Positions 36,863 to 43,273 of a stretch of 44,346 nt of DNA are shown piece after piece (position 1 is the stretch's first letter; each line of letters begins with the position of its first letter). The position numbers and the translations under genes are program-made. Origin of the DNA: a virus; the UHGV virus genome UHGV-0027446, one strand, 5' to 3'. Below the pieces are notes generated by a model. That model saw only the letters and a program-made list of their open reading frames with translations. It had not been told where the DNA came from and made no database searches.

Positions 36863-37275
36863 TGGGCTACTTTGAGGACTTAACAAAAGCGTTTGACGTG
36901 CCGCTGGTAGCCTTCGGAACCACCAACGGCATCAAGGTTGCGCTTGAAAACATCGACGCGCCGACGTCAACCGATACGCCGTATCTGGCGAGTTACATGT
37001 TACTGGCGGATACGGAACAGGCTGACTTATTCTTCACCGAGCAACGCTCTGGTATTTATCAGGTCGACATTAACTACGCATCGGTGAAAGGTAGCGCGCC
37101 AATCAATAAAATGGCAGACTTACTTAACACGGCGTTTAAAGCAGGTAAGTCATTTTCGCGTAACGACATCTGCGCCGAGGTTCAATCGGTTAGCCTGGGG
37201 CCGCTGATTGTAGAAAACGGATGGGCCAAACGGCCATTGTCAATTAACTTTATTGCATTCACCAAGAGGCTGTGA
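36859..37275 (+). CDS. putative tail terminator protein
   Basis: Immediately upstream of major tail protein gene; synteny only. Confidence 0.4.
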   Translation: MMGYFEDLTKAFDVPLVAFGTTNGIKVALENIDAPTSTDTPYLASYMLLADTEQADLFFTEQRSGIYQVDINYASVKGSAPINKMADLLNTAFKAGKSFSRNDICAEVQSVSLGPLIVENGWAKRPLSINFIAFTKRL

Positions 37276-37277
37276 AT

Positions 37278-38447
37278 ATGGCTACAACTCCTTTTAAGGG
37301 CGCGAATACCGCGCAATTCTATGTGGCGGAAGTGACCCCGGGCGTAACACCAAGTAACCCGGTATGGTCGCCGCTGCGCAATACTGGCGGCGTTCCCGCG
37401 GTAACCCGCGACGCGCTGACTTCCAACGAACTCGACGGCAGCCGAGAAACTACATCCATCCGCACTGGTAACAAACAGGTCAGCGGCGAGTATGCCATTG
37501 AGCTTAGCTCCCGTAGTCAGGATGATTTCCTTGCTGGTGCGATGACATCTACTTGGCAGGATGGTGTAACCTTATCCGCTGTTGGCATTACGGTAGACCC
37601 TGTAGCTAAAACCTTTACCCGCGCCACCGGCAGCTTCATTACTGACGGCGTAGAGGTCGGGGACCTTCTGTATTTTGACGCTTTAACCGGAGATAACTCT
37701 AAGCCGTTCATCGTTACTGCCGTAACAGCTACTGTGGTTACTGGTGCAGGCATTCAGCACACCCTTACCGCCGAAGGCCCTATTGAGACCGATGGAAAAA
37801 CTGGCGATAAACTGGAAACCGGTAACGCATGTAAGACGTTCTCCATCCTGACATGGTTCAAAGGACAGTGCGGGAACCCTGACGCGTACATGTTGACCAA
37901 AGGCGTGGAAATCTCCGGTTTTACTATCGAGCAGGCCGTAAACGCGATGGTGACAGGCAGCTTCCCGTTCATCGGTCTGAGTCAGGAAATTCTTACCGCG
38001 CCGCCAGCAGGTTCTGACTTCTCCCAGGTTACGTTCACCGATGAGCCGTTCTCGTCTGTAGATGTATCTGTGTTCGACGGTTCCACGCCGTTGCGTTGTG
38101 ATACTCTGACCATCACCAACGACAACGGCGCATCTGCTCAGTTCGAACTCGGCAACAGTAGCGTTGCGTTCGTGGAACGTGGTCGCGCGGCTAACACCTT
38201 CTCTATCTCCGGCAAGCTGTACGACATGGCGATGATTCAGAAGTTTATCAACGAACAGCAGGTGGAGATTAACTCTATTCTGGCCGGGGTAAACGGGGCT
38301 ATGTCTTTCAGCCTGAAACGCGCAGAACTTACGGCGGTTACACCAGAGATTGGTGGGCCAGAGTCAATCACTCAGTCCATCGAAGGCCAGGCAACCGGCA
38401 ATCAGTATCAGTCATCTATTGTTATCCAGCGTATCACCTACGCATAA
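37278..38447 (+). CDS. major tail (tube) protein
   Basis: 389-codon ORF upstream of chaperone and tape-measure genes; AAGAGG SD. Confidence 0.6.
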   Translation: MATTPFKGANTAQFYVAEVTPGVTPSNPVWSPLRNTGGVPAVTRDALTSNELDGSRETTSIRTGNKQVSGEYAIELSSRSQDDFLAGAMTSTWQDGVTLSAVGITVDPVAKTFTRATGSFITDGVEVGDLLYFDALTGDNSKPFIVTAVTATVVTGAGIQHTLTAEGPIETDGKTGDKLETGNACKTFSILTWFKGQCGNPDAYMLTKGVEISGFTIEQAVNAMVTGSFPFIGLSQEILTAPPAGSDFSQVTFTDEPFSSVDVSVFDGSTPLRCDTLTITNDNGASAQFELGNSSVAFVERGRAANTFSISGKLYDMAMIQKFINEQQVEINSILAGVNGAMSFSLKRAELTAVTPEIGGPESITQSIEGQATGNQYQSSIVIQRITYA

Positions 38448-38450
38448 AAC

Positions 38451-38476
38451 TAAGGCCCCGACAGGGGCCTTTTTCT
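38451..38476. terminator. bidirectional terminator (TAAGGCCCC-GACA-GGGGCCTT + T-run)
   Basis: Between major tail gene and convergent minus-strand cassette. Confidence 0.6.
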
Positions 38477-38706
38477 CACTCATCTATATTACTCCTGTAT
38501 TCCCGTAACTTCTCCAGACTTTCAATTGCCTCCGCTAAGTCTGTTACAGTGTCCTTGTGACCACGCAAGCCCATGCACAATAGCTTCTTTAACGCATGCT
38601 GTAGCGCCGGGTCGCGGATATCGAAGGCCCGTAGCACATCGTAAACGTCTACGGTCATAGTGGTGCCGTGAGTATTTGTCATTGTGCGGTTGTATTTTGA
38701 AGTCAT
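38476..38706 (-). CDS. hypothetical protein (cassette gene 3)
   Basis: VYDVLRAF...ALQHALKKLLCMGLRGHKD motif; ATGA coupled to phosphoesterase gene. Confidence 0.45.
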   Translation of the reverse strand: MTSKYNRTMTNTHGTTMTVDVYDVLRAFDIRDPALQHALKKLLCMGLRGHKDTVTDLAEAIESLEKLREYRSNIDE

Positions 38707-39833
38707 CCCAGCATCTCCGGTGAAATAGTTAAACGTGCGACCTCACCATATTCGGCGCTATAAGTAATTACATTTGCACTACGGCCTGACATCCACCCAC
38801 CGCGTGAGGCGTAGGCGTCTTTAGCCGCTAAGGTGCGGTGTTGCTCAACAATCATGTTACGGCTTTCTACAATCTTTTGGTGGTGCAGGTGGCCTACGTG
38901 GGCGTAGCTGTAAACGCTCCCGCCGAACGCTTTGCGGAACTTGGCAATCATAACTGGCTCTATAGCGTCGAATCGTGCTTTATGTCCGTGTGTAAAGAAT
39001 AGCGTTGTTTTGCCGTGTTGCACCATCTTGTAAACATCCGGCGACGTATCGACGAACACACGCGGCTCGTTGTCGTACAGCGTACTGAACATCTCAGCCA
39101 ACCAAATCATCCCCGATTCGTCGTGATTCCCTTGCACGATAAGCAAGCGAACATTTTTATGTTTAACGAGGGCCATATCGACAACACGGCGGACCATGCG
39201 AATCATGTAGCGGACCAGTTTCTGATAGCGCGTGTCAGCGTCAAGAACGTGGCCACTCGCTGGCGTAACGGCATCCAGACTATCGAAGTGCGCAAGGTCG
39301 CCCAGCAGATTAATAACTCCTGTTCCGGCATCCGGGGCTTTCTGGAATGCCGCGTCGAACCAGCGAGAGAACAGGTCTTCCGCAATCTTCATGTCCCAGT
39401 CGTCGCCGCTCTCGTCGGCCCATGCCAGCATACCGAGATGGAAATCGGATACAGTGTAAAGATTGAGTAGCTTGTCATCACGTTTGGCGCGTGCCGCTTT
39501 AACAGGCGCAACGGGGGTAATCTCCGACTTCATGCCTTCGATTACGGCTTTCATCAACTCTACCTGACGTTCGACATCGGTATCAGTCTTAACCCATTGC
39601 AGTTTAGTGTTGCCGAACTCGTCAACAAGTGACGACGTGCCTTTAATCTTGTAGCCGTCTGGCACGAGGTGGCTAACGTCACGCCCGTGGCCTACACCTT
39701 TCTTAGCCAGCTTCGCTTTACGGATACGAATAACGCGGTCCGAGATGCCGTATTTACGGGCGATGTCTACGTTCTTCATCCCGGCGTTCAATTCTTCCTG
39801 TAACTGTTCGTCGGTTATTTTCTTATGGGCCAT
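38703..39833 (-). CDS. HTH-fused calcineurin-like metallophosphoesterase (SbcD/Mre11-like)
   Basis: N-terminal NVDIARKYGISDRVIRIRKAKL HTH; motifs VSDFHLG, GDLAHFD, QGNHDE, HGH, GHLHH. Confidence 0.65.
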   Translation of the reverse strand: MAHKKITDEQLQEELNAGMKNVDIARKYGISDRVIRIRKAKLAKKGVGHGRDVSHLVPDGYKIKGTSSLVDEFGNTKLQWVKTDTDVERQVELMKAVIEGMKSEITPVAPVKAARAKRDDKLLNLYTVSDFHLGMLAWADESGDDWDMKIAEDLFSRWFDAAFQKAPDAGTGVINLLGDLAHFDSLDAVTPASGHVLDADTRYQKLVRYMIRMVRRVVDMALVKHKNVRLLIVQGNHDESGMIWLAEMFSTLYDNEPRVFVDTSPDVYKMVQHGKTTLFFTHGHKARFDAIEPVMIAKFRKAFGGSVYSYAHVGHLHHQKIVESRNMIVEQHRTLAAKDAYASRGGWMSGRSANVITYSAEYGEVARLTISPEMLG

Positions 39834-39872
39834 GCTTTACTTCCTCGTGTTTAGGATTTGTCTTATAGTAGC

Positions 39873-40064
39873 CTACTTCTCTTTCACGTTCGAGTTGCAA
39901 GCCCATATTAAAATAAATAACCACGGCAGCAGAACCCAACCAAGAAACAGGTTAGCCATGAATATAGCTAACTTCGCTTTATGGTTACGGAAGTACGCAA
40001 CCAGGAAAGGCGCGAAATAAGCGAGCAGTGCAAACAGAATTAAGGAAACTGGTAAACTGGACAT
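39873..40064 (-). CDS. superinfection-immunity (Imm)-like small membrane protein
   Basis: Two TM segments, LLAYFAPFLVAYFRNHKAKLAIFMANLFLGWVLLPWLFILIWA; internal ATG after AAGGGG. Confidence 0.5.
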   Translation of the reverse strand: MSSLPVSLILFALLAYFAPFLVAYFRNHKAKLAIFMANLFLGWVLLPWLFILIWACNSNVKEK

Positions 40065-40094
40065 TTTAAACCCCTTCATTGTTGGTGTAAGTGA

Positions 40095-40123: not shown

Positions 40124-40231
40124 GTAATGTGATAGAATAATTTTGCGCCTAGTGTCGCACACGAAAAGCGGGTGGTTCCCGTCTGGCGCATTTATCGTTA
40201 ACCTGTAACCTCTTAACCAAAGGATTAAAGA

Positions 40232-40651
40232 ATGAAACTTTCTGATTTCTATTTCGAAGAGAAAGCGCTGGTAGGCAAGAAGATGCCGATTCTGCTACCA
40301 AACGGTGAAGACTCCGGTGAGTGGCTTAATGTGGTAAGCCCTGACGCGGATGTCGCCGTTAAAGCGGGGCGTGCTTTCATTATCGCGTACCGCCGCGGGC
40401 TGGCGCGTTTTGAAGAACTGGAAAAAGCTGCCAAAGAATCCGGCGACTATACTGAATATAACCTGGCGATTAATGAACTAGCGGAAGACCTCAACCGGCA
40501 ACTCGCGGCAGAAGTCGTAAACGGCTGGAGCTTTGACGACGAGCCTTTCTCTAAGGAAGCGTTTAACAAATTGCTCGACCAGTTCAAAGGTCTTGGAACC
40601 CAGGTTGCAGCGTTCCATAACGCCGAGCGCAAAACATTACAGGAAAAGTAG
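40232..40651 (+). CDS. tail assembly chaperone (gpG-like)
   Basis: AAAGGA SD; position immediately before -1-frame ORF and tape measure gene. Confidence 0.55.
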   Translation: MKLSDFYFEEKALVGKKMPILLPNGEDSGEWLNVVSPDADVAVKAGRAFIIAYRRGLARFEELEKAAKESGDYTEYNLAINELAEDLNRQLAAEVVNGWSFDDEPFSKEAFNKLLDQFKGLGTQVAAFHNAERKTLQEK

Positions 40652-41016
40652 ACGCGCTGTACAGGTTCGCCACCTACGAGTTTGTGGATAAGCATAAAAT
40701 CAGAGAGTTTGATTCTATAGCTGACGGTCACGAACAGGCGCTTATCGCGATGGGTGTAATCGATAAGAAAAAACGTGCAGCGCGACGGGGTGGGCCAGAA
40801 TGCCCGCCCCTTTTTATATCCACCTTTGAGACGTACTGTGACATTAAGTTTACGCGACACGTGCGCGAGGACGCTGTAGTATTGTTCGCAAGAGAATCCG
40901 TTACGTGGCAAGACCTGAAAGCCTATCTCGATGTTACGCAAAAACAGCTTAGCCTGTTCGAGATAGACATTATCATGGGCTTAGAAGCAATCTTTGAAGG
41001 TAGAAATCATGGCTGA
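40621..41016 (+). CDS. tail assembly chaperone frameshift extension (gpT-like, -1 frame)
   Basis: -1 frame open from 40621 overlapping last 10 codons of G; no SD before first in-frame start codon (GTG 40684); ends overlapping tape-measure ATG. Confidence 0.4.
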   Translation, partial: RRAQNITGKVDALYRFATYEFVDKHKIREFDSIADGHEQALIAMGVIDKKKRAARRGGPECPPLFISTFETYCDIKFTRHVREDAVVLFARESVTWQDLKAYLDVTQKQLSLFEIDIIMGLEAIFEGRNHG

Positions 41017-43273
41017 TACCGCTAGCTTGATAGTACGAGTATCCTCGACCGGCGTCGATAAAACCACATCACAACTGAACGGACTTACCAAGGCGGCTGG
41101 CGCTGCCGCTGCTGCCGTTGTCAGTCTGGAAACCGCTAAGCAGGTGTTCAGTGCGCTGGTGGACTCTCAGCGCAACTTCGATAAGCTGAACTCCGGCCTC
41201 ATCACAATGACTGGAAGCGCAGAGAACGCGGCTAAGGCTTTCAGCGTCCTGCAACAGTTCGCAAAAGAGACCCCGTACGGTCTCAATCAGGCGGTCGAGG
41301 GCTTCACTAAACTTGTAGCCCTCGGTCTTAACCCCAGCAAAGAGGCGTTAATCTCCTACGGCAACACCGCGGCGGCTATGGGTAAAGACCTTAATCAGAT
41401 GATTGAGGCAGTCGCCGACGCCAGTACATTCGAATTTGAGCGCTTAAAAGAGTTCGGCATCAAGTCGTCGCAACAGGCGGATACAGTTTCTTTCACGTTC
41501 CGTGGTGTTACTACCACGGTTAAAAAGAACTCCGAAGAGATTCAGAAATACCTGTTAAACATCGGTAACACTGATTTCGCCGGGGCGATGGAGACGCGCT
41601 CGAAGACATTAGACGGCCAGTTATCGAGCCTCGCGGACTCTTTCGATGGCCTTGTACTTGCGGTGGCGCAATCAGGTTTCGGCGACGCCGTAGGTGAGCA
41701 AGCCGCGAGAGCGGAAGATGCTATCACAGCACTCACCGACGCTATCGCGTCTAATGAGATCACCGCCACGCTCCAGGATTGGGTGACACTGTTCAATGAA
41801 TCGTTCAAGTTTATTTCTGATGCCTTAAACGACCTGGCATACGATACTGAGGACAAATCCGCTGATATGTCCGATTCGCTGGGTACTATACCAGACGCTA
41901 TCCGTGAGTGGTTGCCCGACATCCAGCAGACGTTCCACGAGGTTATTGCGTGGTTCCAGCGCATTGACGATTACGCCGTAGCGCTTGGCCAGACCCTCGC
42001 CGACGTGTTTGACCCGAGCAAAACGGCAGCGCTCACATTTAAAAAACTGACTGCAGAGGCTGATGCTGCATACGACGCCAGCATAAAACGCGCAGAGGCA
42101 GAATCACAGGCCATTACCAACAGGTCTAAGCAGCGTAAGAAAGAAATTGAGGAACAGCGCAAGCAGTACAATGAGCGCAAGAAGCAAGAGATTGACTTAG
42201 CCAGCCTTGTTAATGGGAAGGGCGGAAAGGGCGGAACTGGCGGAACCGGAAATACCAACGACAAAGACGCGAAAGCCGCCGCTAAGAAAGCAGAACAATT
42301 GCGTAAACAGGCCCAGGATTATCTGGACACTTTGGCCCGTCAGAATAACGACGAGTTAAAGGCAATTGACGCGCAGGAACAGCAGAAACTGGCTAAAGCA
42401 AAAGAGTTTTACAGTCAGGGCGCGTTGTCTCTGAAAGAATACGAGCAAGCTAAAACGGCTATTGTCCTCGAAGCAGGGCAAAAACGACAAGATGAACTGG
42501 ATAAACGCCAGAAAGAAGCCCAGGAAAAGCAGCAGAGCGCCGATGCATATGTGGCCCAACTGCAAGCCAGCTTCGAAGGTGAATCCGCAGAGCTTGACCG
42601 CCAGTATCAGATAAAGCAGGATAAGCTGGACAAGTTCCACGAAGAAGGATTGATTAGTGAGGAAACGTACCAGAACGCTCTTGCTGACCTGCGTAAACAA
42701 AAATCAGATGCACTAATCGAAGATGACCTGTCGACCTGGGGTACTATTGCCGCTAATGTTAAAAATGCCTCACGCGAGAACACCGCTTTGTATAAAGCCG
42801 CGGCTATCACGGAGGCCACCATTTCCACATACCTGGCGGCGAACAAAGCACTGGCAACTGGCGGCCCAATCCTCGGCCCAATCCTCGCGGCGTCGGCGGT
42901 TGCGCTCGGTCTGGCTAACGTGGCTAAAATAAGTTCCGCCCGTGAGCAGGGTGGTCAGTTATCCGCAGGCCAGATGTCTACCGTCGCGGAACGCGGCAAA
43001 CCCGAGGTTATCATGCCCGCGGGTGCATCGCGTGTGCGCACCGCGCAGCAGATGAAAGAGATTATGGGGCAAAACGGCGGCGGCCCGTCCGGCGGCGATA
43101 ACGTCACCATCGTCAACAACACCACCGGACGTGTAGATTCCGCGGTAACAGAACGTGATGACGAAGGGCGTTTACGTATTATAATCAGTGAAACAGTAGC
43201 GTCGCAGTTACAGGATAACAACTCACCGATTTCTAAAGCTCGCCGCTCTACTCGCGGTCAGCCGGGGTATTGA
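41009..43273 (+). CDS. tail tape measure protein
   Basis: ~755-codon ORF, Ala/Gln/Lys-rich coiled-coil, Gly-rich GKGGKGGTGGTG segment, after G/T chaperone pair. Confidence 0.8.
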   Translation: MADTASLIVRVSSTGVDKTTSQLNGLTKAAGAAAAAVVSLETAKQVFSALVDSQRNFDKLNSGLITMTGSAENAAKAFSVLQQFAKETPYGLNQAVEGFTKLVALGLNPSKEALISYGNTAAAMGKDLNQMIEAVADASTFEFERLKEFGIKSSQQADTVSFTFRGVTTTVKKNSEEIQKYLLNIGNTDFAGAMETRSKTLDGQLSSLADSFDGLVLAVAQSGFGDAVGEQAARAEDAITALTDAIASNEITATLQDWVTLFNESFKFISDALNDLAYDTEDKSADMSDSLGTIPDAIREWLPDIQQTFHEVIAWFQRIDDYAVALGQTLADVFDPSKTAALTFKKLTAEADAAYDASIKRAEAESQAITNRSKQRKKEIEEQRKQYNERKKQEIDLASLVNGKGGKGGTGGTGNTNDKDAKAAAKKAEQLRKQAQDYLDTLARQNNDELKAIDAQEQQKLAKAKEFYSQGALSLKEYEQAKTAIVLEAGQKRQDELDKRQKEAQEKQQSADAYVAQLQASFEGESAELDRQYQIKQDKLDKFHEEGLISEETYQNALADLRKQKSDALIEDDLSTWGTIAANVKNASRENTALYKAAAITEATISTYLAANKALATGGPILGPILAASAVALGLANVAKISSAREQGGQLSAGQMSTVAERGKPEVIMPAGASRVRTAQQMKEIMGQNGGGPSGGDNVTIVNNTTGRVDSAVTERDDEGRLRIIISETVASQLQDNNSPISKARRSTRGQPGY

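Follow-up and report, generated by a model that had tools for sequence, protein, structure and literature searches.

Programmed −1 frameshifting between two overlapping tail assembly chaperone ORFs has been described for the G/GT pair of phage lambda (Levin, Hendrix & Casjens 1993; Xu, Hendrix & Duda 2004, 2013, 2014; summarised in PMC5009743), which is expressed at a ratio of about 30 G to 1 GT (PMC5009743). [quoted passage not shown] E. coli has a single tRNA-Lys, which pairs better with AAA than with AAG (PMC5009743). Slippage of one tRNA beside a vacant A site can proceed without any downstream structure, and a −1 slip of tRNA-Glu from GAA on G_GAA is known to occur when decoding in the A site is delayed (PMC6771820). 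Among phages related to the genome described here, the two ORFs are annotated as a joined two-piece CDS in K1G (since the GenBank deposit GU196277, and also in RefSeq), K1H, Shelanagig, fFiEco02, and Shemara, and as two separate genes in most other relatives, including Raoultella phage RP180, which carries a canonical heptamer. In the Shashou genome announcement, the lack of a canonical slippery sequence was the authors' reason for not calling a frameshift (PMC6776780), whereas the Shelanagig genome announcement stated that a slippery sequence does exist (PMC6763656).

The stretch of DNA analysed here (the window; 44,346 nucleotides, UHGV-0027446) is a Kagunavirus (Guernseyvirinae) genome with 95–97% identity to K1G-like coliphages over the chaperone region, and the coordinates of the features discussed below are collected in Table 1. 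The chaperone ORF is preceded by an SD-like AAGGA located 8–12 nt upstream of its ATG, and its 3′ end reads ...AAC GCC GAG CGC AAA ACA TTA CAG GAA AAG TAG. Its product matched positions 1–138 of the profile phrog_15027, ‘tail assembly chaperone’ (E 1.6e-68), and was a borderline match to Pfam PF08748, Phage_TAC_4 (21.9 bits; cutoff 21.1). The −1 ORF (T) matched Pfam PF23812, Phage_TAC_18 (E 1.2e-18, 67.5 bits; cutoff 27), and positions 134–259 of the same phrog_15027 (E 6e-71). Thus, a single profile of 259 positions covers both ORFs, with the junction at K139/V, and the way in which the first ORF fills positions 1–138 and the −1 ORF positions 134–259 indicates that the profile was built from proteins that were already fused.

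The Phage_TAC_4/Phage_TAC_18 pair immediately precedes the tape measure gene, and the end of the T frame overlaps the tape measure ATG in ATGGCTGA; this overlap is kept in nearly all relatives, in which the last T codons, CAT and GGC, are synonymously fixed. The tail tube gene lies further upstream and is separated from the chaperone genes by an inverted three-gene module on the minus strand (38476–40079), an insert shared by relatives. The module comprises a small ORF, a metallophosphatase-type ‘DNA repair exonuclease’, and a superinfection-immunity protein. The chaperone leader (40142–40206) gave a sub-threshold match to the Rfam int-alpA RNA, at 31.8 bits where the gathering score is 35.8 (E 2.4e-4); the match recurs in K1H, SHAK7693, and Snoke and is weaker in fFiEco02 and Shelanagig. 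A search for phage-encoded tRNAs able to influence decoding found none.

The initial annotation of this region had described a −1 frame open from 40621 that overlaps both the end of the gpG-like ORF and the start of the tape measure gene, and this arrangement was confirmed from the sequence. The frame comprises 131 sense codons followed by its TGA stop, and the chance of an open frame of this length is approximately 0.002, as a rough estimate that assumes ∼3/64 stops per codon. Because an in-frame TAA closes the frame upstream, any shift must fall between 40621 and 40651. This 31-nt overlap contains no canonical X_XXY_YYZ heptamer (GAA is not XXY), which bears out the original reading of GGAAAAG as the nearest approach, one base off the G_GGA_AAG of lambda. 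Within GGAAAAG, A_AAG is the sole 0-frame Z_ZZN tetramer of the overlap, and no further Z_ZZN or heptamer that might serve as another slip site was found between 40621 and 40651. The bare GGAAAAG is unremarkable, with six occurrences on the two strands of the window, which is not beyond chance, so the case for the site rests on its position and conservation.

Table 1. Features of the tail chaperone region discussed in the text, in window coordinates.
Feature	Position	Strand	Remarks
Tail tube gene	37272–38447		Upstream of the chaperone pair; PF18906, E 2.6e-38
gpG-like tail assembly chaperone ORF	40232–40651	+	0 frame; ATG 40232, stop TAG 40649–40651; 139 aa
TAA closing the −1 frame upstream	40618–40620	+	From the sequence
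Predicted shift site G_GAA_AAG	40642–40648	+	Core tetramer A_AAG, 40645–40648
0-frame stop UAG	40649–40651	+	Abuts the 3′ end of the shift site; probable kinetic helper
T segment, −1 frame	40648–41016	+	GTA (Val, predicted first codon after the slip) to TGA 41014–41016; 122 aa
GCGCTG (GCGYTG in the family)	40654–40659	+	Begins 6 nt past the shift site; synonymous positions invariant
Tape measure protein gene	41009–43273	+	ATG 41009; phrog_1538, E 2.6e-171

To compare the junction across related phages, annotated relatives were combined with 80 IMG/VR loci found with a T-segment alignment, yielding 91 distinct sequences with 72 unique junction contexts. The contexts come from metagenomic contigs and from Kagunavirus, Jerseyvirus, Cornellvirus, Serratia, and Hafnia phages, and T identities reach down to 37%. 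The −1 relation between the two frames holds in all 91 distinct relatives. This comparison, which had been named as a check on the frameshift proposal, revealed that AAAGT is invariant in all 72 unique contexts. In 71 of them, the next codon after AAG is the 0-frame stop (TAG in 52 and TAA in 19), the one exception having TTA TAG; in 69 of these 71 contexts, an A or C occupies the fourth base, just after the adjacent stop. The codon preceding AAG is GAA in 55 contexts, GCA in 13, AAA in two, and GGA and TCA in one each. At the homologous position, the CAG GGA AAG of Raoultella phage RP180 contains exactly the G_GGA_AAG of lambda, and two metagenomic contigs (L064 and L067) read GCA AAA AAG and thus contain the dnaX-type heptamer A_AAA_AAG; the presence of these canonical heptamers in some members identifies the position of G_GAA_AAG as the shift site of the family. 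Additionally, the −1 frame is open just five codons ahead of the junction valine in some relatives, so the switch must occur within the last few codons of G.

The bases around the core vary in a structured way. Base −6 is G in all 55 GAA contexts, across the preceding codons GCG, CAG, AAG, CTG, ATG, and TCG, and in 22 of these the preceding codon is four-fold degenerate; the same base is A in the AAA contexts and free in the GCA contexts (A/G/C = 5/3/5), where re-pairing is impossible. Across these alignments, base −6 behaves as tandem re-pairing would predict. Downstream, five positions of the GCGYTG motif (+6 to +11), specifically G6, C7, G8, T10, and G11, are fixed in 71–72 of the 72 unique contexts, and the junction valine codon is GTA, at a four-fold degenerate position, in 71 of 72. 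Synonymous constraint was assessed in codon alignments of 86 unique G+T sequences as the identity of codons among pairs sharing an amino acid. The identical-codon fraction is 1.0 at GAA and AAG, 0.98 at GTA, and 1.0 at GCG, compared with a median of 0.50, and its seven-codon sliding mean peaks at 0.84–0.85 over 40637–40665, the maximum in either ORF. Elsewhere, complete synonymous fixation is confined to the final two codons of T, where the overlap with the tape measure start provides an internal positive control.

The G/GT-type programmed −1 frameshift proposed in the initial annotation is therefore supported by the gene identities, the fused PHROG profile, the canonical heptamers of relatives, and the peak in synonymous constraint, as well as by the lack of a conserved T start (see below) and the joined CDS of GenBank relatives. 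We consider it highly probable that a low-level −1 ribosomal frameshift on G_GAA_AAG_UAG, with A_AAG as its core, joins G and T. In the proposed mechanism, a small fraction of the ribosomes translating the chaperone gene would slip back 1 nt at the shift site, just before the UAG. Re-pairing of tRNA-Lys from AAG to AAA would be cognate and would give the stronger pairing for the single tRNA-Lys of E. coli, and tRNA-Glu could exchange GAA for GGA through a central G.U pair. Once translocation had placed tRNA-Glu and tRNA-Lys in the E and P sites, with the slowly decoded UAG in the A site, both could re-pair one base back; GUA (Val, 40648–40650) would then be read in place of the stop, and translation would run in the −1 frame to 41016. 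The predicted product is a 261-aa G-T fusion (...TLQEK/VDALYRF...) beside an abundant 139-aa G. By extension from lambda G/GT, the fusion would hold the tape measure protein through its G part and bring in the tail tube protein through its T part, and a low G-T ratio would fit the lambda precedent. We infer that the slip occurs, that its efficiency is low, and that the stop promotes it. A protein homology search with the 261-aa fusion returned four partial matches and no fused entries, and no proteomic or genetic evidence of the fusion in Guernseyvirinae-like relatives was found in the literature.

The window has the adjoining UAG that characterizes stop-assisted (‘shifty stop’ or vacant A-site) slippage. 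Stop codons reportedly promote slippage next to them, as Weiss and co-workers in 1987 and Horsfield and co-workers in 1995 are said to have described. In the window, the adjacent stop is a probable helper that would promote the slip by leaving the A site slow to fill, through either E/P-site slippage or one-tRNA ‘hungry’ slippage.

How far the upstream codon takes part bears on the best surviving alternative, a pure one-tRNA slip, in which the P-site tRNA-Lys would slip on A_AAG with the stop waiting in the A site and the GAA/G context idle. We regard this as possible, although we would not favor it: in relatives that carry GCA or TCA, the upstream tRNA has no way to re-pair, and yet both A_AAG and the adjacent stop are kept, and a slow A site would make structure unnecessary (PMC6771820), but the fixation of G at −6 in every GAA context, together with the canonical heptamers that the AAA and GGA variants complete, suggests that the upstream tRNA contributes. 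A pure one-tRNA slip is possible for the GCA and TCA lineages and less likely in the window, owing to the fixed −6 G. The distinction between the one-tRNA and two-tRNA (near-heptamer) pictures would disappear if the slip of both tRNAs takes place after translocation, in the E and P sites.

Stimulatory elements were sought on both sides of the site. Downstream, minimum free energy (MFE) folds of 125 nt and 52 nt gained no stability over shuffles (z = −0.13 and 0.10, respectively), the RNAalifold consensus of 31 diverse sequences, computed to detect a conserved hairpin or pseudoknot, reached only −0.78 kcal/mol, and a 10-bp hairpin of the window itself showed pairing in 52.6% of alignment cells, a level that shuffles matched. 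The record of phage Snoke carries an annotation note of ‘predicted secondary structure’ here, crediting Anany et al. 2015. No conserved pairing partner for GCGYTG was found in the alignment, and a long-range pairing of GCGCU (40654-58) with GGCGC (40737-41), which appears in the MFE fold, was discarded because the partner is not conserved. Upstream, positions −23 to −12, searched for an SD-like stimulator, were poorly conserved among the 72 unique contexts, and an Rfam scan identified no frameshift element. Since no stimulator is conserved, the shift could be very inefficient if neither the stop codon nor the conserved GCGYTG assists it. Two published observations weigh on the same side: G GAA AAG, deliberately chosen as the ‘less slippery’ control for work with a reconstituted E. 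coli system, gave mainly the 0-frame product (PMC6924986), and Z_ZZN tetramers without a stimulator barely exceed background in vivo, at ∼0.15% vs. 0.11% (PMC4066793).

A more specific reading, offered tentatively as a whole, is that the Guernseyvirinae-like G/GT signal may be a minimal NNA_AAG_UAR cassette that operates without an RNA stimulator, as a stop-assisted −1 ‘shifty stop’. Under this tentative reading, slow termination at the stop, with A or C as the fourth base, would itself be the stimulator, and the upstream tRNA would contribute only where re-pairing is possible (G_GAA, A_AAA, and G_GGA). As a further and equally tentative layer, a hairpin within the T frame, which would be translated only rarely, may be kept by compensatory changes in many lineages and may tune the amount of tape measure mRNA relative to G.

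This hairpin is strong and terminator-like and consists of GGGGTGGGC-CAGAAT-GCCCGCCCC, followed by TTTTTATAT (40787–40819, −20.6 kcal/mol), with the hairpin itself at 40787–40810 and a T run following. In many lineages, the hairpin and T run lie over G-P-E-C-P codons, with flanks that differ yet remain mutually complementary; the Jerseyvirus and Cornellvirus clades are without it. Its covariation score was 0.201, compared with 0.109 in shuffles (none of 500 as high), and one slid control (+3) scored 0.239; the covariation in this alignment is suggestive, not clean.

Frameshifting would be unnecessary if T were made separately, without fusion, by independent initiation or by termination-reinitiation a short way past the G stop, at CTG 40657, GTG 40684, or ATG 40750, and many deposited records do annotate two distinct ORFs. 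The start codons themselves make this very unlikely. The first in the −1 frame of the window, GTG 40684, lies 12 codons past the junction valine, followed by ATG 40750, and neither is preceded by a Shine-Dalgarno sequence; the absence before GTG 40684, where the upstream sequence is ggttcgccacctacgagttt, had already been noted in the first description of the frame. In Jerseyviruses, a conserved Leu codon, the third after the junction, is TTG with an AGGA 12 nt upstream and is annotated as a start with an RBS in the record of phage Snoke, so that separate initiation is possible in those relatives; the same codon is CTG in the window and in 60 of the 72 contexts. Kagunaviruses have either a GTG at T codon 12 or no start ahead of Met34. 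No conserved T start codon or SD was found among the relatives, and six lineages are without any start in the first 50 codons. Conservation of the T protein sets in at the junction valine, before any start codon occurs. In the alignment of relatives, V1, A3, L4, and A8 are invariant within the pattern V-x-A-L-[YFL]-x-[FY]-A, and these residues, together with the likewise invariant F21, D22, I24, G27, and H28, all lie upstream of the sole widely shared Met, at codon 34. When the T segment from the valine was used as a tblastn query, 492 of 494 phage records had at least 80% query coverage beginning at residue 1. Separate synthesis of T would also leave the invariant A_AAG, the −6 covariation, and the canonical heptamers of relatives unexplained.

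Slippage of RNA polymerase on the A run, adding one A to the mRNA, would, reasoning from the letters of GGAAAAG, encode the identical Q-E-K-V-D product, but it was rejected as next to impossible because productive transcriptional slippage needs runs of about 7–9 or more and the run here is just four A in the window and three in the GCA and TCA relatives, and it would also leave the conserved G after the run, the adjacent stop, and the −6 covariation unexplained.

A ribosomal −1 shift at this site would have a practical consequence for annotation, as most of the ∼490 related phage records split the gene into a chaperone and a ‘hypothetical protein’. A family rule, namely NNA_AAG followed directly by TAR, with a predicted fusion of the form ...K/V-x-A-L, lets the joined CDS be called consistently. 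The natural series of codons that precede AAG (GAA, GCA, TCA, AAA, and GGA), in which a stop almost always adjoins the site, is also suited to tests of stimulator-free −1 frameshifting in E. coli, and could be used to test the contributions of the adjacent stop and of the near-cognate upstream tRNA. Neither the rule nor the series alters the current understanding of G/GT frameshifting.

In comparison with known systems, the site shares the A_AAG re-pairing core with IS1222 (G_CGA_AAG), Bacillus subtilis cdd (A_CGA_AAG), and the A_AAG of IS1/IS3 family elements, and it resembles other NNA_AAG cases in its non-slippery or poorly slippery upstream codon and its dependence on a single tRNA-Lys (PMC5009743; PMC4066793); however, those cases generally use a downstream structure or an upstream SD-like stimulator, whereas the family of the window conserves an adjacent stop instead. 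With E. coli dnaX (A_AAA_AAG), the site has in common the A-site codon and the slip of tRNA-Lys, and the two metagenomic relatives noted above carry the exact dnaX heptamer; dnaX differs in its upstream SD and downstream stem-loop, with ∼50% shifting, whereas the window is without these stimulators and has a weaker upstream codon.

The likeness to lambda G/GT extends to two overlapping ORFs directly before the tape measure gene, the second in the −1 frame without a start of its own, to a slip at ...A_AAG near the end of G without a strong RNA stimulator, and to a low-level fusion that would be expected to connect the tape measure protein with the tube protein. Unlike lambda, which has the canonical G_GGA_AAG, the window has G_GAA_AAG, its slip would involve the two final sense codons, right beside the stop, and the inverted three-gene module parts the tube gene from the chaperone gene; the fusion, moreover, is here a prediction from sequence. 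Apart from the canonical heptamer, every testable defining feature of a lambda-type G/GT is present in the window. The locus is the same as ORF22A/22B of Escherichia phage K1G (GU196277/NC_027993), which reads ...CAG GAA AAG TAG ACG CGC TG, with 94.8% nucleotide identity over the two ORFs and a T segment protein that is 100% identical; the differences are a few substitutions and a G of 139 aa in the window vs. 138 aa in K1G, none of them substantive. The feature is thus already known and ordinary, and what a family-wide definition of the site adds to it is modest.

Downstream of the putative shift site at the end of the gpG-like tail assembly chaperone gene, the synonymous positions of a GCGYTG hexamer were invariant in all unique contexts (72/72, the distinct junction sequences among 91 distinct relatives). 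A pairing partner for the hexamer was sought across the alignment of the relatives, and none was conserved; its conservation may reflect a spacer or mRNA-channel effect, or alternatively selection for rapid decoding once the frame has changed.

Further downstream, the T frame, which is the -1 reading frame that would be entered after the slip, contains an element resembling an intrinsic terminator, with a 9-bp stem (GGGGTGGGC / GCCCGCCCC; eight G-C pairs), a CAGAAT loop, TTTTTATAT after the stem, and a folding energy of -20.6 kcal/mol. Over the G-P-E-C-P codons of T, a hairpin and T run were retained in many relatives, with stem flanks that differed yet remained complementary; the element was absent from the Jerseyvirus and Cornellvirus clades. 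The covariation score of the hairpin was 0.201, compared with 0.109 for shuffles (0/500), while a control slid by +3 gave 0.239. The hairpin may be an attenuator within sequence that most ribosomes would leave untranslated.

Features surrounding the chaperone gene and its -1 frame
Feature	Position	Strand	Remarks
Inverted three-gene module	38476-40079	-	Splits the tail genes between the tail tube gene and the chaperone gene
int-alpA RNA-like leader	40142-40206	+	Separates the chaperone gene from the divergent immunity gene; Rfam RF02996, below threshold
GCGCTG (family form GCGYTG)	40654-40659	+	6 nt past the shift site
Intrinsic-terminator-like element	40787-40819	+	Lies within the T frame

Upstream, the leader matched the full int-alpA RNA model at a sub-threshold 31.8 bits (gathering score, 35.8; E 2.4e-4), and the match recurred in phages K1H, SHAK7693, and Snoke (31.6-32.5 bits), whereas fFiEco02 and Shelanagig matched only part of the model. 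For this region, blastn alignment to several diverged Kagunavirus-like phages was limited to the leader and the 5′-terminal part of the chaperone gene, at 80-84% identity. The inverted module is an arrangement common to K1H, SHAK7693, and Jerseyvirus relatives. One of its genes encodes a metallophosphatase-type protein of 376 aa, which matched phrog_704 (‘DNA repair exonuclease’) at E 5.6e-166; the other two are a 76-aa ORF and the gene for a superinfection immunity protein (PF14373) of 68 aa.

The record for Raoultella phage RP180 (NC_048181 16124-16905) splits the chaperone region into two genes, with the start of the second 32 nt downstream; this annotation probably represents a missed joined CDS. 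At the homologous site, RP180 carries the canonical heptamer of lambda, G_GGA_AAG, in the context CAG GGA AAG TAG.
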